This document shows, piece after piece, positions 3,001 to 50,726 of a stretch of DNA of 64,000 bases. This DNA comes from Parcubacteria group bacterium (GTDB lineage Bacteria > Patescibacteriota > Minisyncoccia > Phycocordibacterales > Phycocordibacteraceae). Each line of letters begins with the position of its first letter. Position 1 is the first letter of the stretch. The notes beneath the pieces were generated by a model that was not told the DNA's origin, did no database searches, and saw only the letters and a program-made list of their open reading frames with translations. The DNA is taken from the NCBI GenBank assembly GCA_028286615.1, contig JAQBRG010000003.1:211800-275799 (forward strand), given 5' to 3'. A program made the position numbers and the translations under genes.

Positions 3001-3543
3001 AGTAATGGTGGCCCATGCGCTGTGTACGACGCTAAGGATCTTCGCTGCACCCTTGCCTGTTACCTGTGTGCTAGTGTCGCTCACAATAGTACAAGTGCCG
3101 GATACTGGGTGTGTTGGTACACAGTCGTTTTCGGTGTACGGGAAAGGTCCATGTGCTGTAGCGTCGTATCCAACAGGAGGTGTTGGAGGAACTGTTCCTT
3201 CTGGGCAGACAGGATTTACTACTGCAGTTACATCACTAACCAATCCATTAACAGTTGGATTGGTCTCATGAGTCGGAGGAGTTGGGTCAGTTGGATGAGT
3301 GTCTCCTGTTGGATTAGTGTTTGGAGTCTCGTTTGTTGCAGGAGCATCTCCGTGTGTTACTGGTGCAACAGGGTCAACAACCACGTCTGGGGTTATTGCA
3401 GTTGTTTCAACTACATCAGGAGAAACAACCTGAGCAAGAGCATCAACTGGGAAGCTCATGGCGATAAGAGAGAACATGAGGAGGCCAGCATTGAAGGCGG
3501 CAAAGGATTTACGGAATGCCGACGTGCGAGCATCTGAATTGGT
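1..3543 (-). CDS. Large secreted cell-surface protein, partial (C-terminus lies beyond window start); signal peptide, DUF642-like beta-sandwich segment and repeated Cna-B/prealbumin-fold-like domains
   Basis: The minus-strand frame is open from ATG at 3543 to the window edge, so it has no in-window stop and is absent from the ORF track. N-terminus MTNSDARTSAFRKSFAAFNAGLLMFSLIAMSFPVDALA is signal-peptide-like. Repeats such as GCVTFDDVPFNDYTIDEVDQDGW and TGTYNVSEVVPTGWTL...CTFTNTKD resemble Cna B-type repeats. NLINNGSFEAP...W resembles the DUF642 N-terminus. The short plus-strand ORFs in this span are antisense shadows. Confidence 0.7.
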
Positions 3544-10031: not shown

Positions 10032-10116
10032 AATTGGCGCCCTCGAGGGATACACCTCGGGGGCGTAGCGTTTAGTTGCCCCGCCTCCCCTTCCGTGGTA
10101 CTGTTCCGGACACGAC

Positions 10117-10347
10117 ATGCAGATTCTTCTGGCAAACCTGCCCTACATTCAAATCGCGCTTTCGCTCCTCCTTATAGTAGGTATCGTGCTCCAGCAGCGC
10201 GGTGCTAGCCTTGGAGGTGCTTTCGGTGGCGATAACTTTGCCTCGACCTTCTACAAGCGCCGAGGTGCTGAGAAGTTCATCTTTAATGCAACTATCGTAA
10301 TTGCAATACTGTTCGTGCTGGCAGCAGTTGCTGGCTTTGTAGTCTAG
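10117..10347 (+). CDS. secG: Preprotein translocase subunit SecG
   Basis: 76 aa. Two TM helices and the SecG pattern LQQ-G-(S/G)LGGAFGG...F..RG.EK..T. Confidence 0.8.
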   Translation: MQILLANLPYIQIALSLLLIVGIVLQQRGASLGGAFGGDNFASTFYKRRGAEKFIFNATIVIAILFVLAAVAGFVV

Positions 10348-10402
10348 CGTACAGGGCTCTTTGAGCTCTGTATTGTTTCTATTTCACTCTGATTATTTAT
10401 TT

Positions 10403-14204: not shown

Positions 14205-14236
14205 AAAACACGCCGCACATGCGGCGTGTTTTTGTT
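14205..14236 (+). terminator. Rho-independent terminator after rnj
   Basis: ACACGCCGCacatGCGGCGTGTTTTTGTTT. Confidence 0.8.
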
Positions 14237-20069: not shown

Positions 20070-20474
20070 ATGGAACCCGTACAGAAAACAGAGGAGGAGT
20101 GGAAGGAAGAATTAACCCCTGAAGAATATAAGGTTATGCGTGAGAAAGGAACGGAGGCACCTTTTACTGGTGAGTTCGTAGATAATCACAAGGACGGTAC
20201 CTATAGATGCAAAGCATGTAATGCAGTGTTGTTTGGTTCAGACACCAAGTTTGATTCTGGCTCTGGTTGGCCTTCCTTTACGGATCCTAAGGTTGCCGCA
20301 AACGTTGGTACTCGTTCAGACGACGAACACGGTATGCACCGCACAGAAGTGTATTGCAAGAATTGTGGAGCGCACTTAGGACACGTGTTTGAAGACGGAC
20401 CCAAAGACAAGGGTGGCAAAAGATACTGCATCAACTCTGTCTGTCTTGCGTTTGAAGAAGAAAAGAAAGATTGA
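20070..20474 (+). CDS. msrB: Peptide-methionine (R)-S-oxide reductase MsrB
   Basis: CxxC...CxxC zinc site, SGWPSF and the HLGHVFEDGP motif. ATG at 20070 (MEPVQK) is preferred over the track start at 20001. Confidence 0.9.
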   Translation: MEPVQKTEEEWKEELTPEEYKVMREKGTEAPFTGEFVDNHKDGTYRCKACNAVLFGSDTKFDSGSGWPSFTDPKVAANVGTRSDDEHGMHRTEVYCKNCGAHLGHVFEDGPKDKGGKRYCINSVCLAFEEEKKD

Positions 20475-21047: not shown

Positions 21048-21250
21048 GCTACAGCTCCCATCTGAAATACCGGTGTGACCGCCGGCAGTGTATGAGAAAT
21101 GCGAAGAACTTTAGAAGCCCTTCTGGTTTGGATAATACACCCGCGTCATGCAGCTATCCCCATGTGCATCCATTCGTAACAAAAGCGTGTCCATATTGTC
21201 TTGTTTGACACATCCTAAATTCAGGTGTCTACTTACTTCAGGTTAGAACA

Positions 21251-21293
21251 CCTCCCCCGCAGCCGGCCTCCTTGGGACTTGCTTCGGGGGAGG
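21251..21293. repeat. Inverted repeat CCTCCCCCG-N25-CGGGGGAGG upstream of the gcrA-like gene
   Basis: Perfect 9-bp arms at 21251-21259 and 21285-21293. Confidence 0.5.
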
Positions 21294-21360
21294 ACACGAG
21301 ACGATTGGTCTTGGCAATGCATAGTCGTGCATTGATAAACCATCCTCCCCGATATTAGGT

Positions 21361-21585
21361 ATGCCAGTACTAAAGGCACTTGGTCTCGGGGTCGTGATCA
21401 TCGTTCTCAAGGTTCTCACCCCGCAGATCTTTTCTGAACTTCAAGGGACAGCTATAGCATTTCTGCATGGCGCCCACGTTTCTGCTGACATGGCCACAGA
21501 TTTAGCCGCGAGCGCTGGAACATCTATCGAATTCTCGAATGCTCCGCCCAGGCTTCCTCAGGCACCACAGATCGTAGGCTACTAG
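21361..21585 (+). CDS. Hypothetical small protein in the GC-rich islet (doubtful)
   Basis: 74-aa ORF with GC3-rich codons followed by a strong terminator. No family assigned. It could equally be noncoding. Confidence 0.3.
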   Translation: MPVLKALGLGVVIIVLKVLTPQIFSELQGTAIAFLHGAHVSADMATDLAASAGTSIEFSNAPPRLPQAPQIVGY

Positions 21586-21596
21586 CTTCCCTCTCA

Positions 21597-33214: not shown

Positions 33215-33283
33215 GTCTAAGTCCTCCAAGAGGTTATGCGCTTGACCATCTGCACATTGCAAATAGCTTGACGCTACCGTGGT

Positions 33284-33333
33284 TTCGCCACAGCGGAGAA
33301 AGGCCTATATAAGCCGCTCTACGCTGTGGCGAA
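33284..33333. repeat. Inverted repeat TTCGCCACAGCG-N26-CGCTGTGGCGAA upstream of the GC-islet gene
   Basis: Perfect 12-bp arms at 33284-33295 and 33322-33333. Confidence 0.6.
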
Positions 33334-33441
33334 TTCACAAAGTTTTATCAAAGAACTTGGGGGTAAAGATACCACTTTTAGGACAAAAAGTCAAGGTATT
33401 CTATACTATACACATCGACTCTCTGGTGCCTGCTAAGTAAT

Positions 33442-38000: not shown

Positions 38001-38115
38001 TATTATGGCCGGGCTTGCCTTCTCTCTCCTTCTTACCCTCGTCCTTATTCCTATCCTGTACTTCCGTTGGCCAGGAAAGGCAGTGCGCGAACATTACGAA
38101 GATCGCGGAGTATAA
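35011..38115 (+). CDS. RND efflux transporter permease (AcrB/HAE family)
   Basis: 1034 aa with a 12-TM RND architecture and two large periplasmic loops. It overlaps the adaptor gene by 8 nt. Confidence 0.9.
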   Translation: MTKFWSFFLHKHHFTIFLMLVLLAGGLYAVSAIPKESTPDIAIPLGVVSTVLPGAGSADVERLVTDKIENGVLGVEHVSKVTSTSGDGISIVSVEFDASANIDKSIQLLKDAVDAVKSDLPTEALDPVVSDVNFADQPILIISISGNLAPAELTALGESVSDEIKRVSGVSKVSVSGVRARQVQVVVKQERLREYNLALSDVTNAIRSAGVASPAGSITVDGVNYAVRFESGVPSTDAVANVALAGPGGATIHVRDVAEVIDGLEDPTTYSRVSVDGKPSQPSLTLTIFKSRGGNIAQIGHAVEKRLEDLKADMLAGTNTVISYNGAEEVNKSLIELTRAGVETVILVMLVLLFTLGWRESLVAAASIPLSFLVAFIGLLASGNTLNNVSLFALILAIGILVDSGIVVVEAFHTRLLKYGDKHEAAVAAIREYAWPLIAGTFTTIVVFIPLFFLSGIVGKFLASIPFTVIFVLLASIFVALGFVPLLAIYFVKDNHSPAQERQEKYNQAARVWYQEFLQKMLRNKKSQNRFFAAMGILFVLALALPATGLLKSIFFPGDDTDYIYVQIEKPRGTELAQTDLALREVEEILYANPHVASFVSEAGAGSSFSGSGASGGNVGNITVNLPEGHKQTSAELVTELRKQFETVTSASITVAEPAGGPPSAAPVTITFSGDDLGALTKTSDNAAHVLSDIPGVVNINSSTKDSSAEFVVTLDSAKAAELGVSPVVVADTLRTALFSAKATSIRTGKDDIEVRTKLNLNPTYSDPSETTHTTIDAVRALTIPGKQGPVLLSSIATITYEPAEASIQHEAGTRISTVTADVAPGANAIDVSNQFAKKFTQDQIVPGVTMKLGGASEDIGKSFIELFVALIAGAALMLSILVLEFNSFRQSFYLLLIIPLSLVGVFVGLTVFGQPLSLPSMLGVIALAGVIINHAIILMDSIARIHREQKDLSLEEVVVQAASTRLRPILLTTIVTVVGMIPLTLASAFWAPLAFAIMAGLAFSLLLTLVLIPILYFRWPGKAVREHYEDRGV

Positions 38116-38150
38116 ACAAAAGAACGCCCCGGATGGGGCGTTCTTTTGTT
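38116..38150. terminator. Bidirectional rho-independent terminator after the RND operon
   Basis: AAAAGAACGCCCCggatGGGGCGTTCTTTTG. Confidence 0.8.
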
Positions 38151-38161
38151 AGGAGAACAGC

Positions 38162-38593
38162 TTAGTTCTTGATCTTAAGCTTGTGATCTACTGAGTACTT
38201 TCCAGGACCAGTAATCATAAGAGATACGGCTGCGGCAAAGAGAAGGATGATGTATTCGTATCCTCCACCTGCTAGGAAGAAGCCGTGTGTAATGTGTACG
38301 GTGAAGAATGCAACAACCGAGACAAAGGCGAGGATTTTTGCAACCCAGTGTGTGTATGCGCCAAGAATAAGCATAAGACCGCCAACGAGTTCAGCGGCGA
38401 TAAGGAGTGCCGCGAAGAAGCCTGCAGCTGGGAATCCAAGACTGCCAAGGAAACCACTAACTCCTGGAAGTCCCATCATGGTGAGCTTCTGGTATCCGTG
38501 CATCGCAAAGATAAGACCTGTTACAACGCGAAGGATAAGAGGAGCAAGATCTGCTGCTCGTTTGGTACAGCTACAATGGAACAAGTTTTTCAT
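38162..38593 (-). CDS. DoxX family membrane protein
   Basis: 143 aa with four TM helices. The APLILRVVTGLIFAMHGYQK start is DoxX-like. Confidence 0.65.
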   Translation of the reverse strand: MKNLFHCSCTKRAADLAPLILRVVTGLIFAMHGYQKLTMMGLPGVSGFLGSLGFPAAGFFAALLIAAELVGGLMLILGAYTHWVAKILAFVSVVAFFTVHITHGFFLAGGGYEYIILLFAAAVSLMITGPGKYSVDHKLKIKN

Positions 38594-38640
38594 GAATATA
38601 CGCTAAGGGATATGCGTACAGTGTAGCTCCTTCCTGGGAT

Positions 38641-39285
38641 TTAGGGAGTGGCTGGAAGTGCGTCAGGAAGCTTGAGCGAGAGCGCTACAGAACGGAGAAG
38701 TTCGTTTACATCTTTGAGTTCGTCTGCAGTATTGGTTGGAGGTGCATACACGAGCACACCGCTAAACTTCGATGCTCCCTTTGTTCCTGTTGGGAATACA
38801 TAGACTGAAACGTCTGAGGTTAGGGTTGAGTCTGAGCCCGCAGTGCGCTTGGTAAGAGTCATGCGGTATTCGTATGCCTTGTCTCCTGAGGCGCTGAAGA
38901 AAGAGGGCTGCACTTTAACATTGTCGCAACTAAGAATCTGTCCAGGCAGATCTGCCGCACAGGTGAGCTTTGCTTGAGCTGTGAAGAAAGCTTCCTCACT
39001 TGCTGGAGGAAGTGCCGGGTTACTCTTTACAACGCTTACGAGGACGTCCGTATCAAAATTCTTCCCTGTTGTGTCCTTTGCATCTTTCGTGCCAATTGCC
39101 ACAAAGTCGCTCTGGTACTCATTGATGTCGTATTTCGCGGGGAATGAGAATGAGAACGCACGGTTCTTGTACTCAGTTATGCCATCGCGCTTTGTCTGCA
39201 TGAGGGTGTGTGCAATAACCACGACAATACCCACAAGTGCGATAGCAGCGATTATAACGGCGATTCTTTTTTGCGATAAGGACAT
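38641..39285 (-). CDS. Hypothetical membrane-anchored secreted protein
   Basis: N-terminal TM or signal anchor. No family assigned. Confidence 0.5.
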   Translation of the reverse strand: MSLSQKRIAVIIAAIALVGIVVVIAHTLMQTKRDGITEYKNRAFSFSFPAKYDINEYQSDFVAIGTKDAKDTTGKNFDTDVLVSVVKSNPALPPASEEAFFTAQAKLTCAADLPGQILSCDNVKVQPSFFSASGDKAYEYRMTLTKRTAGSDSTLTSDVSVYVFPTGTKGASKFSGVLVYAPPTNTADELKDVNELLRSVALSLKLPDALPATP

Positions 39286-39351
39286 ACAGTATTTAAAATT
39301 TAAACAATAACTAAGTATCTATTAATGTCGTATGAAGCACCTTACTCTTAC

Positions 39352-39684
39352 CTACTTCAATTTACGTACAACAAATGAGGTAACGGTAACCTGACCAGCA
39401 GTGCCCTTAGTATAACTAAAATCAGCGGTAAATGCGTTATGTCCGTCTTCATATGACACCACGCCTACTCCCTCATTTGTCGTTATCTGGGTTACAAACA
39501 ACGTCCCTCCAAGGACTGCGGGCTCAGGCGATAATTCGCTTATATGAGCCCGTACGTACTCTTCAGCGGCACTGTTTGAGACTGGTTGCGTCTGAGGTGC
39601 TTGAGCTTTGTGATGCGCAAAGGCCAAAAGACAAAGCACAACAGCTACAGCCAAGACAAGATACCGAGACACCTGTTTGGCCAT
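39352..39684 (-). CDS. Hypothetical small secreted protein
   Basis: Signal-anchor N-terminus. No family assigned. Confidence 0.45.
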   Translation of the reverse strand: MAKQVSRYLVLAVAVVLCLLAFAHHKAQAPQTQPVSNSAAEEYVRAHISELSPEPAVLGGTLFVTQITTNEGVGVVSYEDGHNAFTADFSYTKGTAGQVTVTSFVVRKLK

Positions 39685-39767
39685 AGACTCCTATCCTATC
39701 AGATATCAGGATAGAGTTTCTTGTGTTTGACAGTGTAGGAAAACCAGGGTTTAGCAAAGCTTATATC

Positions 39768-40397
39768 CTATTTCTTTGCGCAGACAGTTTCTAACACTGG
39801 CGCAAGACGTGCAGCAATCTTCAAAGACCCTGCAGCGTTCGGATGAAGCTGGTCGCTGGTTAATTCTTTAGAACCAACAATGCCTGCGAGAATGTTTGGC
39901 ACAAGTGTTGCGTCATACTTCTTTGCAAGTCGTTCAAACATAGATTTGTATGGATCGTTAAACAGGTTTCCAGGAACTCCTGCCAGGACAATATGAATGT
40001 CTGCATCATGCAATTCCTTTAAGATTGCATCGAGGTTCTGTTCTGTATCTGTAACAGGAATACGTTGAAGTGCATCGTTCCCTCCAAGTACAACAAGTAC
40101 TATGTCGGGCTTCGCATTAAGCACCTTCTGTACGCGAACAAGTCCTTGAGCGGTTGTGTCTCCGCTAACACCAAGATTCTGTATGGGCACCCCAATAGTG
40201 CGTGCCGTAACTGACACGAAGTTATCTTCTGTCTGCACACCATACCCGGCAACAAGACTGTCGCCAAAGGCAACGATGGTGGGCTGAACATCAGCACAGG
40301 AGACTAGTGGATCAGGACGCATGAAGAAATAATAAGCGCCAACTCCAGCGAGTAGTAAGACCGCCAAACCAGCAAAAAGAATAGTACGTGAACTCAT
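39768..40397 (-). CDS. SGNH/GDSL hydrolase (TesA/arylesterase-like)
   Basis: AFGDSLVAGYG (GDS block I), GGNDAL (block III) and a C-terminal DxxH-type block. Confidence 0.8.
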   Translation of the reverse strand: MSSRTILFAGLAVLLLAGVGAYYFFMRPDPLVSCADVQPTIVAFGDSLVAGYGVQTEDNFVSVTARTIGVPIQNLGVSGDTTAQGLVRVQKVLNAKPDIVLVVLGGNDALQRIPVTDTEQNLDAILKELHDADIHIVLAGVPGNLFNDPYKSMFERLAKKYDATLVPNILAGIVGSKELTSDQLHPNAAGSLKIAARLAPVLETVCAKK

Positions 40398-40406
40398 ATG
40401 AGTTCC

Positions 40407-41108
40407 TTATGATACCTCAATCAGAAGAAAGGTAGCGGCTGATGGAGACTGAATAGATATGTCCTTGGTATCCCAGAAGCCCATAGCATCTCGCTTCTCT
40501 AACGTGTCGCCTTCGATAATCAGAGTTCCGTCTATAACCAACACGTATACCTTCCCTTCTTCAGACTTAAGTGAGTACGTAAGAGGGTGCGCTGCATTAA
40601 CAACACCTTCGTATATATACGCGTCTTGGTGTATGTGAAGCCCTTCCTCGCTTCCCTCAGGAGAAACAAGCGTAGTTAGTCCAGGTTCCGTTCTCCTGCC
40701 AAAAGCGTGTTGTGCGTATCTTGGAGCAATGTTAGTACTCTTTGGCTCTATCCAAATCTGAAAGAGCGAAAGCGGTTCGTCTTTCGATACGTTGAACTCG
40801 CTATGCACTACGCCTGTTCCTGCTGACATAACCTGCACCTCCCCAGCTTTCACCGTCCCCTCGTTCCCCATGCTGTCTTTGTGCGTAACCGTACCGTCCA
40901 TGACGATGGTTATAATCTCCATGTCTTTGTGCTGATGTGCGCCGAATCCTGAATCTGGCGCGATAGAGTCGTCGTTAATGACGCGCAAGGAACCGAATCC
41001 CATGCGAGACGGTTCGTACCAGTCAGCGAAGCTAAAGCTATACTTAGTCTTGAGCCAGCCATGGTCCCCTCCACCGCGCGAATCTGCTCGATGTATAAGT
41101 CGTTCCAT
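40407..41108 (-). CDS. Pirin family protein (cupin)
   Basis: Pirin N-terminal HxH...H...E metal site (FGAHQHKDMEIITIVMDGTVTHKDSMGN). Confidence 0.85.
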   Translation of the reverse strand: MERLIHRADSRGGGDHGWLKTKYSFSFADWYEPSRMGFGSLRVINDDSIAPDSGFGAHQHKDMEIITIVMDGTVTHKDSMGNEGTVKAGEVQVMSAGTGVVHSEFNVSKDEPLSLFQIWIEPKSTNIAPRYAQHAFGRRTEPGLTTLVSPEGSEEGLHIHQDAYIYEGVVNAAHPLTYSLKSEEGKVYVLVIDGTLIIEGDTLEKRDAMGFWDTKDISIQSPSAATFLLIEVS

Positions 41109-41120
41109 ATGCGGGTGTTG

Positions 41121-41669
41121 TTACTTAGTAACCACTAACTGTCCTTCTACGATCTTCACGCGCGTGGTAAGTGGGATGGTTGGGTTAACAGTTGGTGCTT
41201 CCCACGTGTTACGTCCCTTGTACTTAGCAAGAATAGTTCCGCCTTGAATGCTAACAGAATCTGGTGCAATACGGTCTCCAAGAAGAATGGCGTTGGTACC
41301 TGAGTACAAGGTGTCTGTCTTAAATGCAGCTACGAGATAGTACATAGTTGCAGCACCTCCTTTGTTCTGACTAATGATGAAAGCGATGTCTTCTTTCCCG
41401 TCTCCGTTAAGATCTCCGGTTGCTTCATTTCCTACGTACGCGGTCTTGATCTTAACTGCCGAGCCAGGTGCAGCTTCAACCTCTGATGTTCCGTTTAAAA
41501 GCTGCACATCCTTTCCGTCGATGGTGTAGACCCCGTCCTTATAACTGGTTACGGGTGCTTCGGGTGCCTGCTTATACTTTGCTGTTGAAAGCGTAATGAA
41601 GAGGTACAGCCCGCCAAGAACGAGGACGAGTACTGCGAGGGTTAAAAGGATTCTTTGTTTTGATGGCAT
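41121..41669 (-). CDS. Hypothetical membrane-anchored protein
   Basis: N-terminal TM helix. No family assigned. Confidence 0.45.
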   Translation of the reverse strand: MPSKQRILLTLAVLVLVLGGLYLFITLSTAKYKQAPEAPVTSYKDGVYTIDGKDVQLLNGTSEVEAAPGSAVKIKTAYVGNEATGDLNGDGKEDIAFIISQNKGGAATMYYLVAAFKTDTLYSGTNAILLGDRIAPDSVSIQGGTILAKYKGRNTWEAPTVNPTIPLTTRVKIVEGQLVVTK

Positions 41670-41680
41670 AGGTATAAAAA

Positions 41681-42235
41681 TTAATTAATAGGTCCAGTTG
41701 CGTTGTCCTTTTTCAGAACAAAGAACATGAGCACCGCAATGAGTACGAAGACGGTAAAAGACATGAGCGGGAAGGTTATGTACCCGAACTCAAACACAAA
41801 CCGCTGCGCGCAGTCTACCGCAGTTGGCGCCGCAGGGCACGACACAAAGCTGCTTCCTCCCATCTGCAAATAATGCTGATACAAGGCGATAGCGGCACCC
41901 GGCACACAGAGCGCTCCGACATATGCGGCGATATTTCTGTCTTTCTTCCAGAGGCCCATAGCTAGAAGAATAGGAAGAGGATACAGAAATACCCGTTGCA
42001 ACCAGCAAAGGCCGCAAGGAGCGTATCCAAACACTTCTGAATACACAAGCGTAAGCACGACTCCAGCGGCTGAGATTACAAACGCAGCCTGAAGTGCGTA
42101 GCGCTTCAGGTACATAGATACCACCGCTCCTTCTTTAGGGAAAAGAAGAACTAAGATAAGTAGCAGGATTAGAAGCTGGGCTCCAAGCGTTCCGAGCGCG
42201 AGTATCTGCGTTGTTATCTCTGCGTACGGATGCAT
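41681..42235 (-). CDS. Disulfide bond formation protein DsbB/BdbC family
   Basis: Four TM helices with the Cys pairs CGLC and CxxxxxC in loops, DsbB-like. Confidence 0.7.
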   Translation of the reverse strand: MHPYAEITTQILALGTLGAQLLILLLILVLLFPKEGAVVSMYLKRYALQAAFVISAAGVVLTLVYSEVFGYAPCGLCWLQRVFLYPLPILLAMGLWKKDRNIAAYVGALCVPGAAIALYQHYLQMGGSSFVSCPAAPTAVDCAQRFVFEFGYITFPLMSFTVFVLIAVLMFFVLKKDNATGPIN

Positions 42236-42236
42236 A

Positions 42237-42611
42237 TTACGAAGGAAGCACGCAACCTGTCTTCTCGCTCAACGTCTGGAGCGACTGCGGTCCGCTTACA
42301 CGGCTTCCATCAGCAAACTGCCATGTTGGGTAGCTCTTGATCCCGTTATCAATACATACTTGTGTCTGGCTCTTTCCGTCAGGCAGTGAGCATTCCACAT
42401 AAGGAAGAAGTTTCTCGGACTTCCCGAACAATGCCTTCTGTTGCTGGCAATGGGGGCACCAGAACGCGCCGAAGAACGTTGTCTTGCTCTCGGCTATACA
42501 GGTAGCGAATCCGTCATATTTGCCCGGGTGCACCATGTACCAGCCCCAATATCCTAAAGGCAGCCCAAACACCACAAGAACCACGATTGCGTATATGTAT
42601 TTCTTCTTCAT
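42237..42611 (-). CDS. Membrane-anchored thioredoxin-like protein (CPHC)
   Basis: ATG at 42611 (MKKKYIY). TM anchor then a Trx fold with a CPHC active site. Immediately downstream of dsbB, suggesting an operon. Confidence 0.7.
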   Translation of the reverse strand: MKKKYIYAIVVLVVFGLPLGYWGWYMVHPGKYDGFATCIAESKTTFFGAFWCPHCQQQKALFGKSEKLLPYVECSLPDGKSQTQVCIDNGIKSYPTWQFADGSRVSGPQSLQTLSEKTGCVLPS

Positions 42612-42643
42612 GGGGAAAGTATACCAAGCTTTGGAACTTAAGA

Positions 42644-43066
42644 TTACTCCCAAGAACTAGCTTTCAGGAGACCGTCTTTTAAAAGCTCTTTCACGTATAT
42701 GTCTAGGTCCTCTTCTGAAGAAAGCTCCTCAAAAGAAACCCATTTGTATTCGCCATTCTCTTTAAGGTCTAGATCCGGTTCTCCTTCTGTTTGAGCAACA
42801 TACGTAAGGCGGACAATATGCCGTTCATCGTTTGGGATAATATCTTGAGCTGCAATTAGTCTTGGCTTTGAGGTAATTACAAGTTTGGTTTCCTCTTGCG
42901 TTTCTCTTTCAAGGTTTGCAATGAGCGACGTACCTGGATCTATCCGGCCACCAACAATATCCCAGGACCCGTTTGTCTTACCGTACTTCTCTAAAGACCT
43001 CTTAAGCAAGAGTATTTTGCCTTCGTTATTCTTTAACAGGACTTTGACTCCTACCTGTAAATTCAT
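42644..43066 (-). CDS. NUDIX hydrolase
   Basis: Nudix box GGRIDPGTSLIANLERETQEETKL. ATG at 43066. Confidence 0.8.
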   Translation of the reverse strand: MNLQVGVKVLLKNNEGKILLLKRSLEKYGKTNGSWDIVGGRIDPGTSLIANLERETQEETKLVITSKPRLIAAQDIIPNDERHIVRLTYVAQTEGEPDLDLKENGEYKWVSFEELSSEEDLDIYVKELLKDGLLKASSWE

Positions 43067-43070
43067 AAAG

Positions 43071-43418
43071 CTACATCTTTCTCCATTCACCAGTCTCTTC
43101 GTTAAACTCTGCAATTGACTCTGAGCCTACCGGCACACCATCTATATAGAAGATGGCAGTAATAAGTGTTCTCTCTTCTGCGTTTTTAGTACCATTTCTA
43201 TTAGGATATTTACCTTTCCTCATAAATCGGTACTCGGTCATTTCCCCCTCTTTCTCTCCCTTAACTTCAACTTCTCGCAGATATACTCCTTGCTCGTCTG
43301 AAAGTTCCCGACCGGGAGTAAAGCCCTCAGCGTATTGTGAGATAGCATCAAGTACTTCTTGGCTTGAAAGGATTTTATCCTGCTTCTTTTCTGGGTTATT
43401 TATGTTTGGTCCTTCCAT
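43071..43418 (-). CDS. Hypothetical protein
   Basis: 115-aa ATG ORF. No family assigned. Confidence 0.4.
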   Translation of the reverse strand: MEGPNINNPEKKQDKILSSQEVLDAISQYAEGFTPGRELSDEQGVYLREVEVKGEKEGEMTEYRFMRKGKYPNRNGTKNAEERTLITAIFYIDGVPVGSESIAEFNEETGEWRKM

Positions 43419-43447
43419 AGAGCGTTATAACAAAAGTATAGCAAAAT

Positions 43448-43939
43448 CTAAGCTTTTAAATACGAATCGAAATATATGGCGTGACAGGTATACCCTCCAG
43501 GGTTCTTCTGGAGATAGTCCTGGTGGTATTCCTCGGCTGGCCAGAACTTGGTGAAAGGTTCAAGAGTAGTAACCACTGGATCTTTCCAACGCTCTGAGTC
43601 GTTCACAATCTGAATAAACTCTTCTGCAAGTTTCTTCTCGTCTTCGTCCTGATAAAAGATTGCCGAGCGGTATGACATGCCCTTATCGTTTCCCTGCTGG
43701 TTTAGGGTTGTTGGGTTATGTATCTGGAAAAAGAAATCAAGAAGCTGTTTGTAGTTTGTCTTCTCGGAGTCATACGTAATCTCGAGAGCCTCAGCATGCC
43801 CTGGGTGATTCTCGTAGGTAGGATTCTCATTCTCACCACCTGTATACCCTGCCTCTATAGAAACAATGCCTGGTTGAGTACGGAAAAGTTCTTCAAGCCC
43901 CCAGAAACAACCGCCCGCTAGATACGCTTTCTTGGTCAT
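43448..43939 (-). CDS. msrA: Peptide-methionine (S)-S-oxide reductase MsrA
   Basis: [10 protein letters not shown] active-site motif. Confidence 0.92.
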
Positions 43940-43995
43940 AGAATGTGATTAAACATGAGTATACCTCCGTACACATTAGCAGCAGATGAAGTGCC

Positions 43996-44024
43996 TTGAC
44001 TCTTGCCTCCTAAAACCCTAGGCT
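43996..44024 (+). promoter_or_regulatory. Putative promoter of the candidate ncRNA
   Basis: TTGACT, 17-nt spacer, TAGGCT. The predicted TSS near 44031 coincides with the 5' arm of the closing helix. Confidence 0.4.
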
Positions 44025-44030
44025 ATCCCT

Positions 44031-44258
44031 GGGGGTGTTCGGGCAACACTTGCGGCTAGTAGTACTGGATCAGCATGCCAGTGCGAATTACCGTCGTGAC
44101 CTCAGTCAAGCCATCTCGGATAGTAGAGTGTGCCAGGCCGGGCAAAAGCAAGCACATTCAGTACCCCGCAAGATCGCAGCACGTTACACTTACGTGCCAC
44201 ATACTCAGGTGCCCGAACACCTTCACTTTCAGACCGTCTCTTGTGGCGGTCTTTTTTA
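44031..44258 (+). ncRNA. Structured noncoding RNA candidate (~200-230 nt; 6S RNA or SRP RNA are the leading guesses)
   Basis: No ORF. The 5' segment GGTGTTCGGGCA (44034-44045) pairs perfectly with TGCCCGAACACC (44210-44221) across about 165 nt. There are internal hairpins (GCACGTtacacttACGTGC) and a GUGCCAGGCCGG...AGCAAGCA motif. An intrinsic terminator follows at 44231-44258. Confidence 0.5.
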
Positions 44259-44275
44259 ATTCAATATAATTTGAA

Positions 44276-44668
44276 CTATTTCCCGTACCAGCTCTTCTTC
44301 CAATCTTGCATCTGCTTAATCTCAATGTTCTGGGCTGAGATTATAGCCTGAGCAAGATCTTTTATCTCCTGATGCTTTGCGTTCTTAAGAGCTGCTTCTG
44401 CCATAGCTACGGCTCCCTGATGGTGTACGGTCATCTCTTCCAAGAAAGCCTCGTCAAATGCGTCGCCAGTTTTGCCATCCAGTGTTTGCATCATTCCATC
44501 CATTTCATCCTTCATGCCCATAGAGCCTTGCATCGTGGCTCCATTCGGCATGACATGTTCAGAGCCTGCCATCTTCACGTCTGTCTTTCCTGTAAATGCC
44601 ATTACCCCACCGGCTCCAACAATTACTCCAATAGCTGCCGCGAGAGCGGTTTTGGTGATGTTGTTCAT
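44276..44668 (-). CDS. DUF305-family protein (ferritin-like, metal-stress associated), secreted/anchored
   Basis: HHQGAVAMAE and a second half-site, as in DUF305. N-terminal signal anchor. Confidence 0.7.
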   Translation of the reverse strand: MNNITKTALAAAIGVIVGAGGVMAFTGKTDVKMAGSEHVMPNGATMQGSMGMKDEMDGMMQTLDGKTGDAFDEAFLEEMTVHHQGAVAMAEAALKNAKHQEIKDLAQAIISAQNIEIKQMQDWKKSWYGK

Positions 44669-44697
44669 AGGAAAAGTATATCAATCAATTAGAATTC

Positions 44698-45105
44698 TCA
44701 TCCAAGCAAAAGTCCACAGACAGTGGCTCCAATCCAACCAATAACTGAGACTGCAGCACTAACAATAAGTTGCTTTCTCTTAAATGGAGAAACATCCTTG
44801 GACTCTTGTGTAGCAGCAATATCCACGAGAGACCCTATAAGAAGACCGTTTATTGTAAGTGCGGCTACAAAAACCATCTTAGCCAGGAACATAGGGTCGT
44901 GAATGAATGCGGGCTTATCAATGAACATGAGACCGCCCGTCAGAATAATTCCTGCGAGCCCAAGACTAACGATAACGTGAAGTATGTCGAGCTTCTTCTT
45001 GCTAAGCATTTTCTGTCTGCCACGGAACCACTCAAGCCCTTGCTCGTCTGAATACAGAACAGCAAGACCCGTGATGATGATCAAAAGTACATGGAGAGTA
45101 GTCAT
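44698..45105 (-). CDS. Hypothetical four-TM membrane protein
   Basis: ATG at 45105 (MTTLHVLLIII) avoids overlap with the upstream gene. Polytopic. Confidence 0.5.
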   Translation of the reverse strand: MTTLHVLLIIITGLAVLYSDEQGLEWFRGRQKMLSKKKLDILHVIVSLGLAGIILTGGLMFIDKPAFIHDPMFLAKMVFVAALTINGLLIGSLVDIAATQESKDVSPFKRKQLIVSAAVSVIGWIGATVCGLLLG

Positions 45106-45107
45106 GG

Positions 45108-45587
45108 TTAAGAAGAGAGGTTTCCGATAAAGAATGAGGCGAGCTCTTGCTCGGGTCGAGCCTGACCCCCATGCTCTCGTTCGAATGCCGCAGTGCCGTC
45201 GTGTCCGCAAAGAGACAGAATGGCGCGCGATCCTCCAGGGTGCTGCTTAACCCATAAAGTCAGGTCGTATACCTTGCCGCCGATGGTGGTCCAGCAACTT
45301 GAGGCGTCTGCGTGCGCAGCAACTTGTACCGAGGTATAGCCTGACGTAACTGGCGGAGTGGTTTCTTCTGGAGTGGCAGTAACTGGCTGCTTTGGCTCAC
45401 CAGAACTTGCAGATGCACTGCCTGAATTATTTGCAGAGACACCCATGCTCGAAGAAGCGATAGGCTGCGGTACTTGAGAAGTCTCTTGTTGCGCGAAAGA
45501 ATCAGGTTCCTGGCTTTTGGTTAGATAGACGGTCCCGAGTATTCCCGCAACTATAACAAGCGCTATGGGGAAGATGTGCTTCATCAT
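45108..45587 (-). CDS. Membrane-anchored cytochrome b5-like heme-binding domain protein
   Basis: The C-terminal domain has the HPGG motif (WVKQHPGGSRAIL...CGHDGTAAFE). N-terminal TM and a Ser/Thr/Pro linker. Confidence 0.7.
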   Translation of the reverse strand: MMKHIFPIALVIVAGILGTVYLTKSQEPDSFAQQETSQVPQPIASSSMGVSANNSGSASASSGEPKQPVTATPEETTPPVTSGYTSVQVAAHADASSCWTTIGGKVYDLTLWVKQHPGGSRAILSLCGHDGTAAFEREHGGQARPEQELASFFIGNLSS

Positions 45588-45596
45588 AGAAATATA

Positions 45597-46931
45597 TTAA
45601 TTAGAAAGCTGCGCTAACAAAGTCTGGAGCGAAGCAGCGGCATTGCTGGCATTTGGCTTAACTGCCCTAACCTGGCGGAGTGCAGCATCAATAGCATCAT
45701 CAATTTCCGTCCACTTTGTCTTGTTCATTGGTTTGAGGCGAGCTTCAGAGTTATCCCACTCGTACTCAAGATCTCCAATACGATCCTTTGCTCCTGCGAG
45801 ATTCCCCTGATTCACAAGATTAAGCGTGTCCTGAGTAATAGTGCGTAGTGATGAGAGATCTCCAAGTGGAGAGGTTGCCGGTGTCGTCTGTGCAGCAGGC
45901 TTGGGCGAGGTTACAGCTGGAGCACCAGTAGATGCAGTCGCAGCTCCCTCTTCGGTTTCAGCTTCCGTAGCATCAGAAGCTCCACCATCTTGCTCTTCAC
46001 TTTCTGCCTGGGCATCCAAGGTTTCGGGTGCGCTCTTTTGCAGAGACTGTTGCCGTGCGTGATACCCGACTCCCGAGAGAACAATGAGCAAAACAAGCAC
46101 AGCAACAGTCTGCCACAGGCCGCGATGTCCTCCCTGAGCTGTTATTTCTTTTTGAACAACGGTGGGGTTGGTTACATCCTTCTTGCTGATAGCGAGATAT
46201 ATAACTGCTCCAATGATGGCTGCAATGAATAGAACACTCGTGACCGTAGCACCAAGCCCAAGACCGCCATACTTGGTCGGCTGCGAAAGAAGATCTCCAA
46301 TAGACGCTCCGAGTGGACGGGTAAGGATATAAATAGCCCAGAACGCGAGAATGGAGTTAAGTCCCATACGCCAAGCAATGGCGAATGCTCCAATGGCGAC
46401 AGCAACGATTACACCGGTCGTGAAGTATCCAAGCCCTAGACCTTCAGCAAGCAGGTCCCCTGCCGCTGTACCAAGCGCGAAGGTAAAGAGAATGGCGAGC
46501 CAGTAGAAGGACTCTCTTTGGGAAGTAACGATTGAGTGTATCGAAAGGGTCTTTTCTTTTAGATACCAGGCGATGAACGTAAGCCCTAAGGCAATACTGA
46601 AGAAGATCGTACTCGCTTCAAGAGGTACGCTAAGAGCATCTGTGAGGTTATCCGTAACCAAAGTGCCAAATACGCTGATGAGCACAACCGCAGACCAGTA
46701 AATACCAGGTACGTAACGCTTTGCTTTGAACTGAAAGAATAATGCGACTGCCAAGAGAACTCCCGTCACGATAGAAGTGACCGTAAGGCCTAGATTGAGG
46801 TTTACGTTGAGAAAGTCTGCAGCGGTCTCTCCCACGGTAGTACCTAGGATCTTGATGATCCAAAAGAAAGCAGTTATCTCAGGGACTCTATTCAGTAAGT
46901 TGCGAATTGGGGTCTCGGCTACGGATGTCAT
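45597..46931 (-). CDS. Polytopic membrane protein with three internal repeats (COG4705-like) and C-terminal soluble domain
   Basis: Repeats FWIIKILGTTVGETAAD / FYWLAILFTFALGTAAGD / AFWAIYILTRPLGASIGD, about 10 TM helices and an acidic linker. Confidence 0.55.
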   Translation of the reverse strand: MTSVAETPIRNLLNRVPEITAFFWIIKILGTTVGETAADFLNVNLNLGLTVTSIVTGVLLAVALFFQFKAKRYVPGIYWSAVVLISVFGTLVTDNLTDALSVPLEASTIFFSIALGLTFIAWYLKEKTLSIHSIVTSQRESFYWLAILFTFALGTAAGDLLAEGLGLGYFTTGVIVAVAIGAFAIAWRMGLNSILAFWAIYILTRPLGASIGDLLSQPTKYGGLGLGATVTSVLFIAAIIGAVIYLAISKKDVTNPTVVQKEITAQGGHRGLWQTVAVLVLLIVLSGVGYHARQQSLQKSAPETLDAQAESEEQDGGASDATEAETEEGAATASTGAPAVTSPKPAAQTTPATSPLGDLSSLRTITQDTLNLVNQGNLAGAKDRIGDLEYEWDNSEARLKPMNKTKWTEIDDAIDAALRQVRAVKPNASNAAASLQTLLAQLSN

Positions 46932-46995
46932 GAATGAGGGTTATTAGGGCGCAGAACGCCTTCCTATGTACTATGCCGTTCGTCTCAATTTTCTT

Positions 46996-47484
46996 TCAAA
47001 AAGGCAGGACTATGTCATCACTCGTCTGAAGTACGGCCTCGTAGAACGACGTGTCGTGCGTGAGGTAGTAATAGATTGTATGCCCGAAATCAAAGGAAAT
47101 CAGGATGAGTCCTAGAAGCAAGGTCACGCCAGCAACCAATACCACAGTCTTGATTGTCTTAAATTTGTAGACAGTCTGAGTCTTCTTTAGACTGAGATAC
47201 GCACCTGTTACGAAGAGTGCGAATAGAATGAGCCAAACTATCGGTGCTCCTTGCAAGATGCCTTCAAGCGGAGATTCGATGAGTACGGCCGAGCTGACTC
47301 CTTCGCTGTCAAAGAAAACATAGTCTGCAACTGAGAGCGCGATAGCGCCAATAAAGACCGAGAGCACGGCAAGCGTCCAGAAGACTCCTCTGCGTAGGAG
47401 GAAATACCAAAAAGGACGGGGTGTTATCCCTCTGTCTCGAATCTCGCTTATGACGTCTTTTGAAAAGTCATCCATCGTTTCCAT
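46996..47484 (-). CDS. Putative anti-sigma factor (membrane protein) cognate to the ECF sigma factor
   Basis: Immediately downstream of, and translationally coupled to, the ECF sigma gene. Cytoplasmic N-terminus plus TM helices. Confidence 0.5.
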   Translation of the reverse strand: METMDDFSKDVISEIRDRGITPRPFWYFLLRRGVFWTLAVLSVFIGAIALSVADYVFFDSEGVSSAVLIESPLEGILQGAPIVWLILFALFVTGAYLSLKKTQTVYKFKTIKTVVLVAGVTLLLGLILISFDFGHTIYYYLTHDTSFYEAVLQTSDDIVLPF

Positions 47485-47485
47485 A

Positions 47486-48052
47486 CTATACGCTTGTTAT
47501 ATGCATTTCCCTTAGCAACTTCTCAAGAGCGACCTTTCCACGCGCTATGTGGGTAGCAACCGTTCCTGGGGCAATCTCTAGAATATCGGATATCTCGTCG
47601 TAACTCTTCCCTTCAAAGAATCTGAGTACGAGCGTCTCTCGATATTCGGGTTTCAGTTGCCACAAGGCTTCGGCTACGTGTACGCTTCGAAGACGTGCGT
47701 CACTTTCGGCGAGGATATCAAGCTCGTCTGGAATAGACTCAAACAGTGTAAGTGCATCTTCGCTCGCAAAGGCATGTGCACGGTTCCGCATATATCGGAA
47801 GTACGTCATAACTTCGTTGTGTGTAATCCTATAGATCCAAGAGCTAAACGAGAGCGAGGGTTTGTAATCGTTAAGGTTCAGATACACCTTAATAAACGAT
47901 TCTTGGAGAAGGTCTTTTGTCGTGTCCGTGTCAAATGCACCAAGTCGCTGAATATACCTGGATAGCGGATAGCGATACCGATCAATAATGGTCGAGAACG
48001 CTTCTGGATTCTGCAGAGCGGCTTGCACAGCTTTTTGGTCCGAGTCTTCCAT
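47486..48052 (-). CDS. RNA polymerase ECF-type sigma-70 factor
   Basis: Region 2 (SWIYRITHNEVMTYFR) and region 4 HTH (ETLVLRFFEGKSYDEISDILEIAPGTVATHIARG). Confidence 0.85.
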   Translation of the reverse strand: MEDSDQKAVQAALQNPEAFSTIIDRYRYPLSRYIQRLGAFDTDTTKDLLQESFIKVYLNLNDYKPSLSFSSWIYRITHNEVMTYFRYMRNRAHAFASEDALTLFESIPDELDILAESDARLRSVHVAEALWQLKPEYRETLVLRFFEGKSYDEISDILEIAPGTVATHIARGKVALEKLLREMHITSV

Positions 48053-48215
48053 TGTCTTATTCTACATTCTTAAACTCCTATCGGTTTCTCTTTAAGGGTG
48101 TTTGGGTCGCACAAAGCCGACCCCTAAATTGCTGCGGGTCGTGAGGAGGGTTCGAACTATCTTAAGTGACTAAAGAAATTTAGAGCTTCGCAGCTCAGTA
48201 TAGACACTGGTGATT

Positions 48216-50015
48216 TTACCTAGACTGATTAAGAACTTTGTCCAAAAAAGAAACTACTTTCGGATATGCATCTAGCCGATTCTTAAGTTTAGCCAATCCG
48301 TGACCCTCATCCTCATACACAAGGAGTTCAACTTCCCTCCCAAGCTCCTTGAGCTTTGCAACGACTTGCTCGGCTTCTGAAAGCGGGACACGAGGATCAT
48401 TTGCGCCATGAATCACGAACAGAGGAGCAAGTATCTTTTCGACAGAGTTAAATGGTGAGATTCTCTCAAGAAGCTCGCGGTCACTCTCCAATGAGCCGTA
48501 TTCAGCTTCTCGTAATGCCCTGCGGTAAGAGGCTGTATTCTCAAGGAATGTTACAAAGTTACCAATACCTACAATATCGATAGCTGCTGCCCAGAGTTCC
48601 GGATAGAACGCCAGACCAGCCAGTACCATAAAGCCGCCGTAGCTACCACCCATGAGTACAATTTTCTCTATATCTACTTCAGGCACAGTCTTCAGATGCT
48701 CTCGGAGCGACACAATGTCTTTAACTGAATCCATGCGCTTCTCCACATCGTCGAGTGCCATGTATGTCTTTCCATATCCTGAACTTCCTCGCACATTAGG
48801 CGCAACGACAATATACCCGCTGTAGACGAAGTACTGAGTAATTGAGGCTAGGCCAGGTTGATACTGGTTTTCCGGACCGCCATGAATATTAATGATCACC
48901 GGAAGCTTGTTGTCTTTTGAAATGTCCTTTGGACGATATACAAATGCTGGTACTGAAAGCCCGTCAAATGATTCATAGCGAATCAGCTCCGGCTCAACCA
49001 TAACCTCAGGAGGTACAGCTTGAGGACTGTGTGTTATTTGGCGGCATTCTCCATTCTCAAACTCCATTACCCACACATTAGTAGCGTGACGTGAATCACC
49101 AATGGAAAGTGCTAGCTTCGTGCCATCTTGTGAGAAATGGGTAGTAGTTATATTCCCTGCAGGAAGACTGTATGAAAGCTCTTTGAGTGTTCTGGGGTCA
49201 TAGAACTTTGCCTTATTGTAGCCGTCTTCGTTTACAATAACCGCCAATCTCTTGGCTTCGTTATCAATTGCTAGACCATCTATATCCCATTCGGGCGTTA
49301 GGAGGTATTCGGTACTTTTGTCCGCGAGTGTGTATCTAGCAAGTCCTAGAAATTCTCTGTCTTTGTCTTGTGTAAATAAGAATGCCGATTCGTCAGGTAG
49401 CCATCGAGGATCCATGTGCAGAACATTACCTTCATGGGGTGTTATATGTTCAACTTCGCTTGAAGCTACGTTACACAGATATGCGTCGTTATTGAAATTC
49501 GAATGCTGTTGCGCTGCTATGACGTAGGTGCCGTTAGGCGAGAAGCCGGTTGCTGCACACCAACCTCCTCCATCAAATATGCATTTCTTTTCGAGCGAAT
49601 CAATATCCATAACGTACACGTCAAAGTCCTTGCCGTTGCGTTCTGTTGAGGCAAAGCAAATTTTCTTACCGTCTCTCGACCAAGCACCGAAATCATGGCG
49701 GGCCTCTGGTTGTTTTGTAATATCCGCAATCTCTCGAGTTTCGAGATTTAGAATGAAGAATTGTGTCTGCTCATTTCCTCCCACACTCTTACCAAAAATT
49801 ATCTTGTTCTCGATTGGAGAGAATTGAGCAAAATCAATTGAGTCTGGATAGTCGGTGAGTTGCTCCGCGCCCATCCCATCTGAGGACATAAGGTGCACCT
49901 GGGTAGTTCCCGTTATGGTACTGAGATAGGCAACCATAGAGCCATCGGGACTAAAAGACGGAGAACCTGCTGCCTTAACTTCCAAGAAGTCTTGAATGGA
50001 ATACTCTTTCTTCAT
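48216..50015 (-). CDS. S9 family serine peptidase (beta-propeller + alpha/beta-hydrolase; acylaminoacyl-peptidase/DPP-like)
   Basis: N-terminal propeller repeats. C-terminal GGSYGG nucleophile elbow, with Asp and His downstream (HGANDPRV). Confidence 0.85.
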   Translation of the reverse strand: MKKEYSIQDFLEVKAAGSPSFSPDGSMVAYLSTITGTTQVHLMSSDGMGAEQLTDYPDSIDFAQFSPIENKIIFGKSVGGNEQTQFFILNLETREIADITKQPEARHDFGAWSRDGKKICFASTERNGKDFDVYVMDIDSLEKKCIFDGGGWCAATGFSPNGTYVIAAQQHSNFNNDAYLCNVASSEVEHITPHEGNVLHMDPRWLPDESAFLFTQDKDREFLGLARYTLADKSTEYLLTPEWDIDGLAIDNEAKRLAVIVNEDGYNKAKFYDPRTLKELSYSLPAGNITTTHFSQDGTKLALSIGDSRHATNVWVMEFENGECRQITHSPQAVPPEVMVEPELIRYESFDGLSVPAFVYRPKDISKDNKLPVIINIHGGPENQYQPGLASITQYFVYSGYIVVAPNVRGSSGYGKTYMALDDVEKRMDSVKDIVSLREHLKTVPEVDIEKIVLMGGSYGGFMVLAGLAFYPELWAAAIDIVGIGNFVTFLENTASYRRALREAEYGSLESDRELLERISPFNSVEKILAPLFVIHGANDPRVPLSEAEQVVAKLKELGREVELLVYEDEGHGLAKLKNRLDAYPKVVSFLDKVLNQSR

Positions 50016-50117
50016 ATCTCGAGTATATCGTTATTTCCTTAATAGAATAGATATGTGCTTATTGGTGTATTTCGTGCTGCAGTACCCCAGAGTAGGGCAC
50101 GGAATCTGGTTTGTTAA

Positions 50118-50726
50118 TTAACTCGTACTTGTCTTGAGTGCTCCTACAGGTTCGTAGGTTGCGACAATAACACCGGTACTAGATATATTTGAGTCAACGA
50201 GTTTGAAGTTCTCGGCTTGCGTTCCTTCTGCAAGAAGTCGTTTGCCTGTACCGATGGTGATGGGATAGATCCACAATTGCATGCGATCAATCAGATGTTC
50301 TTTGAGCAACGTCTGAATAAGGTTGCCGCTGCCCCACACCCACAAATCCGGACCGTCCTGTTCTTTCAGCTTCTTAAGCTCTGCCACCACGTCTCCTGTT
50401 ATACAGAAAGAGTTTTGCCACGTGGGCTCAAATGATTTGTGTGTTACCACGTACTTCTTTGTGCTGTTAAATGGATTCGCAACTTCAAGGTCTGTCTTTG
50501 CATTAGGCCAGTACGAAGCAAAGATATCGTAGGTTGTTTTTCCAAGCAGAAGCTCGAACGGACTGCTCATAATTTCATTTAATTTAGCGTCCAGCATCTG
50601 GTCTGAAGGAAACGATAACTGCCAGCCACCGTATGGAAATCCATCTGTCTTATCCTCCTCAGGGCCTCCCGGAGCCTGCATCACACCGTCGAGCGTAACG
50701 AATGTTGTGGTGATTATTTTTCTCAT
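50118..50726 (-). CDS. Dihydrofolate-reductase-like RibD C-terminal domain protein (copy 1)
   Basis: MRKIITTTFVTLDGVMQAPGGPEED...GSGNLIQTLL matches RibD_C/YwjB-like proteins. Confidence 0.7.
   Translation of the reverse strand: MRKIITTTFVTLDGVMQAPGGPEEDKTDGFPYGGWQLSFPSDQMLDAKLNEIMSSPFELLLGKTTYDIFASYWPNAKTDLEVANPFNSTKKYVVTHKSFEPTWQNSFCITGDVVAELKKLKEQDGPDLWVWGSGNLIQTLLKEHLIDRMQLWIYPITIGTGKRLLAEGTQAENFKLVDSNISSTGVIVATYEPVGALKTSTS

Follow-up and report, generated by a model that had tools for sequence, protein, structure and literature searches.

The spacer that separates msrA from a DUF305 gene in a genome of the Parcubacteria (Patescibacteria) raises the question of why a long noncoding stretch is kept within a compact run of genes, and in particular whether it holds the gene of a structured RNA. 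The spacer occupies positions 43940-44275 of the analysed window (i.e. the whole 64-kb stretch of DNA) and by our count measures 336 nt, instead of the 340 nt given in the initial annotation. Both flanking genes, msrA (43448-43939) and the DUF305 gene (44276-44668), lie on the minus strand, which holds every gene of at least 100 aa over 38162-50726. The genes seen around the spacer (DUF347, cytochrome b5, DUF305, MsrA, NUDIX, DsbB and pirin) place it in a redox and metal-stress gene cluster (as typified by DUF305, cytochrome b5, DsbB, pirin and NUDIX). With a median intergenic distance of 46 nt (crude ORF-based gene model) the spacer is 7 times longer than the median, and the G+C content of its 190-nt core (0.55) is raised over that of the 64-kb window (0.48). 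Furthermore, its sequence was recovered base for base in an independent Logan assembly of the run SRR13312974 (locus L001). To our knowledge, the noncoding RNAs of the Candidate Phyla Radiation (CPR) are almost unexplored and, as these genomes are compact, a retained noncoding locus of 336 nt is a reasonable place to seek function. By the same crude ORF-based model, further long gaps (329-598 nt) are located at 21048-21645, 2594-3021 and 10032-10360; these showed no Rfam match at gathering score and may contain small genes or RNAs.

We considered the coding potential of the spacer, which had initially been described as free of ORFs. In a mechanical sense this description fails, since ORFs of 74, 64 and 73 aa are found inside it; none of these (64-74 aa) has a Pfam match, and the two longest ones on the plus strand extend through or beyond the terminator described below. 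The six-frame concatenated translation, when compared with 5.8 billion protein clusters, returned no match at E<=10, which argues against both a small protein and a recognisable pseudogene. A small protein was thus rejected (ORFs lacking Pfam matches and protein relatives, and running through or past the terminator), as was an msrB pseudogene: the products of the genes that precede msrA in relatives, mostly MsrB, fail to match the gap. In the window itself msrB is located at about 20079-20465 on the plus strand, i.e. 23 kb from msrA and on the opposite strand.

A strong plus-strand terminator stands where no plus-strand protein gene exists. This element (44231-44258; AGACCGTC-tcttgt-GGCGGTCT followed by T6 at the DNA level), which had been noted as a canonical intrinsic terminator behind the 3' arm of a long-range helix, was confirmed as an 8-bp stem (AGACCGUC/GGCGGUCU) with a 6-nt loop and a U6 tail, starting 9 nt past the 3' arm. 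It is the sole terminator-like site in 43400-44800 and ranks second of the 25 found in 34-54 kb; the top-ranked one lies after a plus-strand ORF, which indicates that this genome does use terminators of this kind. The hairpin is clearly directional: its predicted energy is -12.6 kcal/mol on the plus strand, where the T6 tail follows, and -7.5 kcal/mol on the minus strand, which offers no U tail (one U-G pair turns into a mismatch there and GAAAGUG comes next). Since a strong unidirectional terminator requires a plus-strand transcript, the most economical reading is that of an orphan sRNA: an independently transcribed, structured candidate gene of about 225 nt on the plus strand, which we regard as having an even chance of being correct. 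Such a gene would most likely be embedded antisense within the long minus-strand gene run of this genome.

At the other end of the putative transcription unit, the sigma70-like promoter that had been proposed (TTGACT-17-TAGGCT) is present in the place indicated: the -35-like hexamer TTGACT (43996-44001, plus strand) agrees with TTGACA in 5 of 6 positions and is, with its partner, unique in the window, and the -10-like hexamer TAGGCT (44019-44024, plus strand), 17 nt further on, agrees with TATAAT in 3 of 6 (T1, A2 and T6). The -10 hexamer is weak, and the pair was not called by a consensus promoter scan. The promoter-like site equals in quality the motif upstream of the tRNA-Gln gene in the same window (TTGAAA-17-TATCGT, a comparable arrangement); the broader pattern TTGAC-N17-19-TANNNT is encountered in the window at chance frequency (7 seen, 5.9 expected). 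From the spacing, transcription is predicted to start in the G-run at 44031-44033 (plus strand), 7-9 nt past the -10 hexamer.

The predicted start coincides with the 5' arm of a long-range helix. The segment GGTGTTCGGGCA (44034-44045) is fully complementary to TGCCCGAACACC (44210-44221), and the 12-bp perfect helix thus formed, with 164 nt between its arms, bears out the exact complement that had been reported about 165 nt downstream. A terminal G-U pair (44033/44222) lengthens it to 13 bp, so that the closing stem P1 consists, on the plus strand, of the 5' arm GGGUGUUCGGGCA (44033-44045) paired with the 3' arm UGCCCGAACACCU (44210-44222), with pair probabilities of 0.7-0.99. Three plus-strand hairpins are predicted inside P1, in agreement with the stable interior hairpins initially described: P2 (44052-44094), an interrupted stem with the 9-nt loop AUCAGCAUG, found in both the minimum free energy (MFE) and the centroid structure (pair probabilities 0.7-0.99); P3 (44110-44177), a long irregular hairpin with an apical GUGUGC/GCACAU stem and the 18-nt loop CAGGCCGGGCAAAAGCAA (pair probabilities 0.8-0.99); and P4 (44179-44197), the hairpin GCACGU-UACACUU-ACGUGC (pair probability 0.99). 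The resulting four-way junction (P1-P4) is both the MFE and the centroid structure of this single-sequence prediction, with pair probabilities of at least 0.7 and up to 0.99. The 226-nt plus-strand fold reached -85.8 kcal/mol (z = -4.2), none of 200 dinucleotide shuffles being as stable, and the 190-nt core reached -72.5 kcal/mol (z = -4.0; 200 shuffles). When 190-nt windows across the 64 kb were scored in a rougher test (20 shuffles each), 1.7% attained z<=-4 and 4.9% attained z<=-3. Five UCAG motifs, mainly unpaired, were found; by a rough estimate they are insignificant after correction for 256 tetramers. The most extreme folding z-scores in the window are mostly accounted for by hairpins formed from perfect or nearly perfect palindromes between A/T-rich flanks (38115-38150, 21599-21627, 14205-14232, 26726-26769 and 33279-33338), several of which resemble bidirectional terminators at gene ends. 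An inverted repeat longer than that of the candidate (21988-22009/22229-22250; 22 nt, 86% complementary, 219 nt between arms) was also observed.

As the gap carries no canonical minus-strand promoter for msrA (promoter scan), the minus strand may also be transcribed across it, and we weighed whether the structure belongs to that strand. According to this alternative, one transcript spans DUF305 and msrA, and the gap forms a structured spacer between the two cistrons or a 5' leader of msrA, where it could govern processing or stability of the RNA or regulate an msrA start coupled to a mini-ORF. It would fit the minus-strand orientation of all genes over 38162-50726, the missing msrA promoter and the reverse-strand fold (-76 kcal/mol, z = -3.0; 200 shuffles), as well as the translation start of msrA: this gene has no Shine-Dalgarno of its own, and on the minus strand (43939-43970) a GGAGG-7nt-ATG opens a 6-codon mini-ORF (MFNHIL) whose TGA overlaps the msrA ATG (ATGA), which suggests translational coupling. 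The two strands are not separated by the count of G-U pairs in the core (5 vs 7, uninformative) nor by a rougher test with 20 shuffles (reverse strand z -3.5 vs -3.4 for the candidate plus strand); with 200 shuffles, however, the plus strand has the better z-score, and the terminator favours the plus strand, its minus-strand hairpin being weaker and lacking the U tail. Moreover, no Rfam cis-regulatory family was matched on either strand of the 421 nt searched (E<=10), and in the relatives msrA is not preceded by a leader. We therefore consider a minus-strand element unlikely.

Taken singly, each of the features of the candidate is close to chance level in the window: in addition to the promoter motif and the folding scores given above, the 64-kb window contains 3 perfect 12-bp inverted repeats with more than 50 nt between their arms. 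What lies beyond chance is the ordered set (promoter, 5' arm of the helix at the predicted start, 3' arm, and terminator 9 nt further on), and it is this ordered conjunction, inside an unusually long gap of a compact genome and with raised G+C, that is notable.

We searched for relatives of the candidate by several routes. The synteny set comprised 80 msrA loci (from GTDB species representatives) and 11 loci of the closest DUF305/msrA relatives. Searches with blastn, nhmmer and a single-sequence covariance model (R1) over 95 loci found no homologue besides the candidate itself and the identical L001, and none was present in the Patescibacteria loci searched, which are genome fragments centred on msrA or DUF305 genes and total about 820 kb. 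Across the 80 msrA loci the gene order is not conserved, and msrA mostly has another gene as a close neighbour, no more than about 30 nt away; in many Patescibacteria relatives (L006-L040) this position directly upstream of msrA is taken by msrB. The closest msrA relatives (87-90% identical; L091-L095) show the arrangement GST-EamA-msrA with spacers of 8-11 nt, while in the closest DUF305 relatives (66-73% identical) about 100 nt of downstream sequence is followed by unrelated genes. In these nearest relatives other genes are thus located 8-105 nt from msrA or DUF305, and the element is absent. A scan of JGI metagenomes for the arms of the closing helix gave three matches, all judged to be due to chance (two high-GC sequences alike only in the searched 11-mer arms, and a third that is an unrelated palindrome); three pattern scans of IMG/VR returned nothing, and BLAST against phages and plasmids nothing meaningful. 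No homologue carrying compensatory base changes was found in the 95 loci, the metagenome and viral scans, the phage and plasmid BLAST or the protein search, and with no homologue from any route neither covariation nor a sign of selection was obtained. As far as visible from the sequences compared, the candidate RNA appears to fit no described family and to be lineage-restricted. Among the loci retrieved, a JGI metagenome contig (L089, 1-210) carries a perfect palindrome of about 55 bp that contains the 11-mer arms by chance, and a Paceibacterota contig (L019) harbours a group I intron (2937-3197, plus strand; Rfam RF00028, 79 bits) and, upstream of its msrA, a region that resembles an msrB broken by a stop or frameshift.

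The empty searches are also what would be expected of a non-functional scar, left by rearrangement in a fast-shuffling neighbourhood, in which the inverted repeat and the promoter motif are fortuitous and the terminator alone is functional (e.g. by keeping stray antisense transcripts out of the DUF305 operon). None of the relatives examined shares the gene order found here around msrA and DUF305, the element is without homologue in any search, 12-bp long-range inverted repeats (3 per 64 kb) and promoter motifs (7 vs 5.9 expected) are at background frequency, and about 5% of windows reach z<=-3. Against a scar stand the order and spacing of the features, which are those of a transcription unit, the three further hairpins (pair probability 0.7-0.99), the raised G+C, the retention of 336 nt in a streamlined genome whose spacers have a median of 46 nt, and the absence of degraded gene traces in all frames. 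We judge this explanation to be somewhat improbable, if still worth serious weight. Far less probable is a MITE or other mobile remnant, for which the 12-bp arms would represent terminal inverted repeats: the size (about 190 bp), the perfection of the repeats, the variable neighbourhood and the absence from relatives are compatible with such an origin, but the element is present as a single copy in the 64-kb window, has no target-site duplication beside its arms and no match in phages and plasmids, and JGI metagenomes and IMG/VR yielded no other copy with these termini (chance matches only).

If the spacer does encode an RNA, the next question is which one, and here the initial annotation had suggested 6S or SRP RNA. 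We searched the whole window with Rfam 15 at gathering score and, with permissive filters, 421 nt around the gap on both strands at E<=10. The former retrieved two tRNAs only; in the latter no 6S, SRP, RNase P or tmRNA model was among the matches (E<=10, both strands of the 421 nt), which had 13-17 bits and consisted of a microRNA model and of sRNA models aligning to the terminator hairpin alone. Thus, of the promoter-to-terminator noncoding unit with its closing helix that had been put forward, the unit itself fits the orientation of the terminator, the fold and the absence of a coding signal, whereas its identification as 6S or SRP RNA falls, no 6S or SRP covariance model having matched even at E<=10.

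With regard to 6S RNA (ssrS; RF00013), the candidate resembles it in being a stand-alone noncoding gene with a 190-nt core (about 180-200 nt) and long paired ends (12-13 bp). It differs in its predicted four-way junction, which takes the place of a rod with a central bubble, in the lack of a model match and in being unconserved in relatives. The rod was modelled and rejected: the best unbranched fold (-58.5 kcal/mol; single-sequence prediction) is 14 kcal/mol worse than the branched one (-72.5 kcal/mol), and when the rod is forced the large loop falls nearly all on the 3' side, unlike the 6S bubble. A divergent 6S RNA (i.e. a decoy of RNA polymerase) beyond the reach of the Rfam models in this phylum could explain the core size, the end-to-end closing helix and the stand-alone gene, and the rod alternative does offer a long internal helix (GUACUG/CAGUAC) with a 3'-side loop that bears a hairpin. 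The missing match to the 6S family at E<=10, the energy deficit of the rod, the local hairpins predicted with probabilities of 0.7-0.99, and the almost wholly 3'-sided bubble all speak against it; furthermore, 6S RNA is normally conserved within a phylum, and no conservation was found here. We leave this possibility only a slight chance.

The resemblance to SRP RNA (ffs; RF00169 and RF01854) is likewise restricted to paired ends formed by the closing helix, a terminator of its own, and a short purine-rich stretch (CCAGGCCGGGCAAAAGCAAGCA) that carries AGG, a GNRA-type GCAA and AGCA. Both bacterial SRP models rank among the most sensitive of Rfam, and neither the small nor the large one (RF00169, RF01854) matches at E<=10. 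The likeness to SRP helix 8 that had been perceived does not hold, as the GNRA loop has no closing stem: the GCAA (44143-44146) lies between CCGG and AAGC, two flanks unable to pair with each other, and is part of an 18-nt loop on a 6-bp stem, so that a helix-8 hairpin with its symmetric and asymmetric loops is absent and was rejected. Moreover, ffs is universal, and the candidate has no homologue in the fragments of relatives' genomes that were compared (about 820 kb). An SRP RNA is in practice refuted, with next to no probability remaining. Neither ssrS nor ffs is an appropriate annotation for the locus; this negative is the firm result of the analysis and, at present, its practical value. 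A literature search on 6S or structured RNAs in the CPR found nothing relevant.

Other known systems share parts of the architecture. By analogy, the candidate may be likened to divergent stress sRNAs of the OxyS type (OxyS sits next to oxyR), in that it would have its own promoter and Rho-independent terminator and adjoins an oxidative-stress gene, in this case msrA, in back-to-back orientation. It is, however, about twice as long as OxyS, multi-branched and closed at its ends by a helix, has no sequence similarity to it, and its co-regulation is putative; in a target prediction, duplexes folded with 75 translation-initiation regions did not stand out from those of shuffled RNA. Bacterial Y RNAs (YrlA type) also have 5' and 3' ends that form a long stem with a branched module, within a size of 100-200 nt, but the candidate has neither an Rfam match on either strand, nor a tRNA-like T-arm, nor Ro/Rsr among the neighbouring genes seen. 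The retron msr-msd noncoding RNA is similar in having a structured RNA of about 165 nt enclosed by inverted repeats (a1/a2-like); as no reverse-transcriptase domain is encoded in the neighbouring genes, a retron was rejected.

Returning to the orphan plus-strand sRNA, a possible mode of action can be outlined. Transcription would begin in the G-run 7-9 nt past the sigma-70-like TTGACT-17-TAGGCT, and the 12-13-bp helix would join the predicted start to a base 9 nt ahead of the terminator, thereby protecting the termini of the molecule against exonucleases, as is the case for other stable RNAs; such sealed ends suggest a stable RNA. The three hairpins that leave the junction may offer their loops to a protein partner, which suggests a scaffold or decoy and not a short base-pairing seed. 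The position of the promoter, back to back with the upstream region of msrA and amid redox and metal-stress genes, suggests stress-linked expression, and co-regulation is probable; as a further possibility, convergent transcription could insulate msrA from DUF305 read-through. On this model the locus would specify a genuine, expressed, protein-binding RNA of a new class (a four-way junction of about 225 nt with sealed ends, retained by an ultra-streamlined Parcubacteria genome and so far confined to one poorly sampled lineage), a proposal that we advance tentatively and consider doubtful. If it is real, it would constitute a lineage-specific structured RNA beside methionine-sulfoxide and redox genes, open a way to study stress regulation in a group of uncultivated episymbionts, and add one more stand-alone bacterial sRNA gene outside the described families. 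Being a single sequence without relatives, the candidate cannot yet bear any functional claim.

Elsewhere in the window we observed a tRNA-like element (26049-26118, minus strand) whose acceptor-type stem (AGCCGGCGG/CCGCCGGCU) has 9 bp and whose T-arm (GAGGG-UUCGACU-CCCUC) is canonical; no homologue of it was found in 1.37 Mb of retrieved loci. It is missed by ARAGORN at default settings and by the Rfam tRNA model at gathering score; sub-threshold Rfam matches were obtained to tRNA-Sec (23.3 bits) and mascRNA (23.5 bits), and relaxed ARAGORN reported a tRNA-Arg(UCG) whose anticodon is at position 29. On the same strand the element is followed by a promoter-like TTGACA...TATTAT (26042-26014) and then by a segment carrying blocks complementary to the tRNA-like interior, after which comes a perfect 16+16 palindromic terminator (25936-25967; context 25930-26150). 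The 221-nt fold of this region has z = -6.3, and a 190-nt window within it reaches z -11, the most extreme value in the window as a whole.
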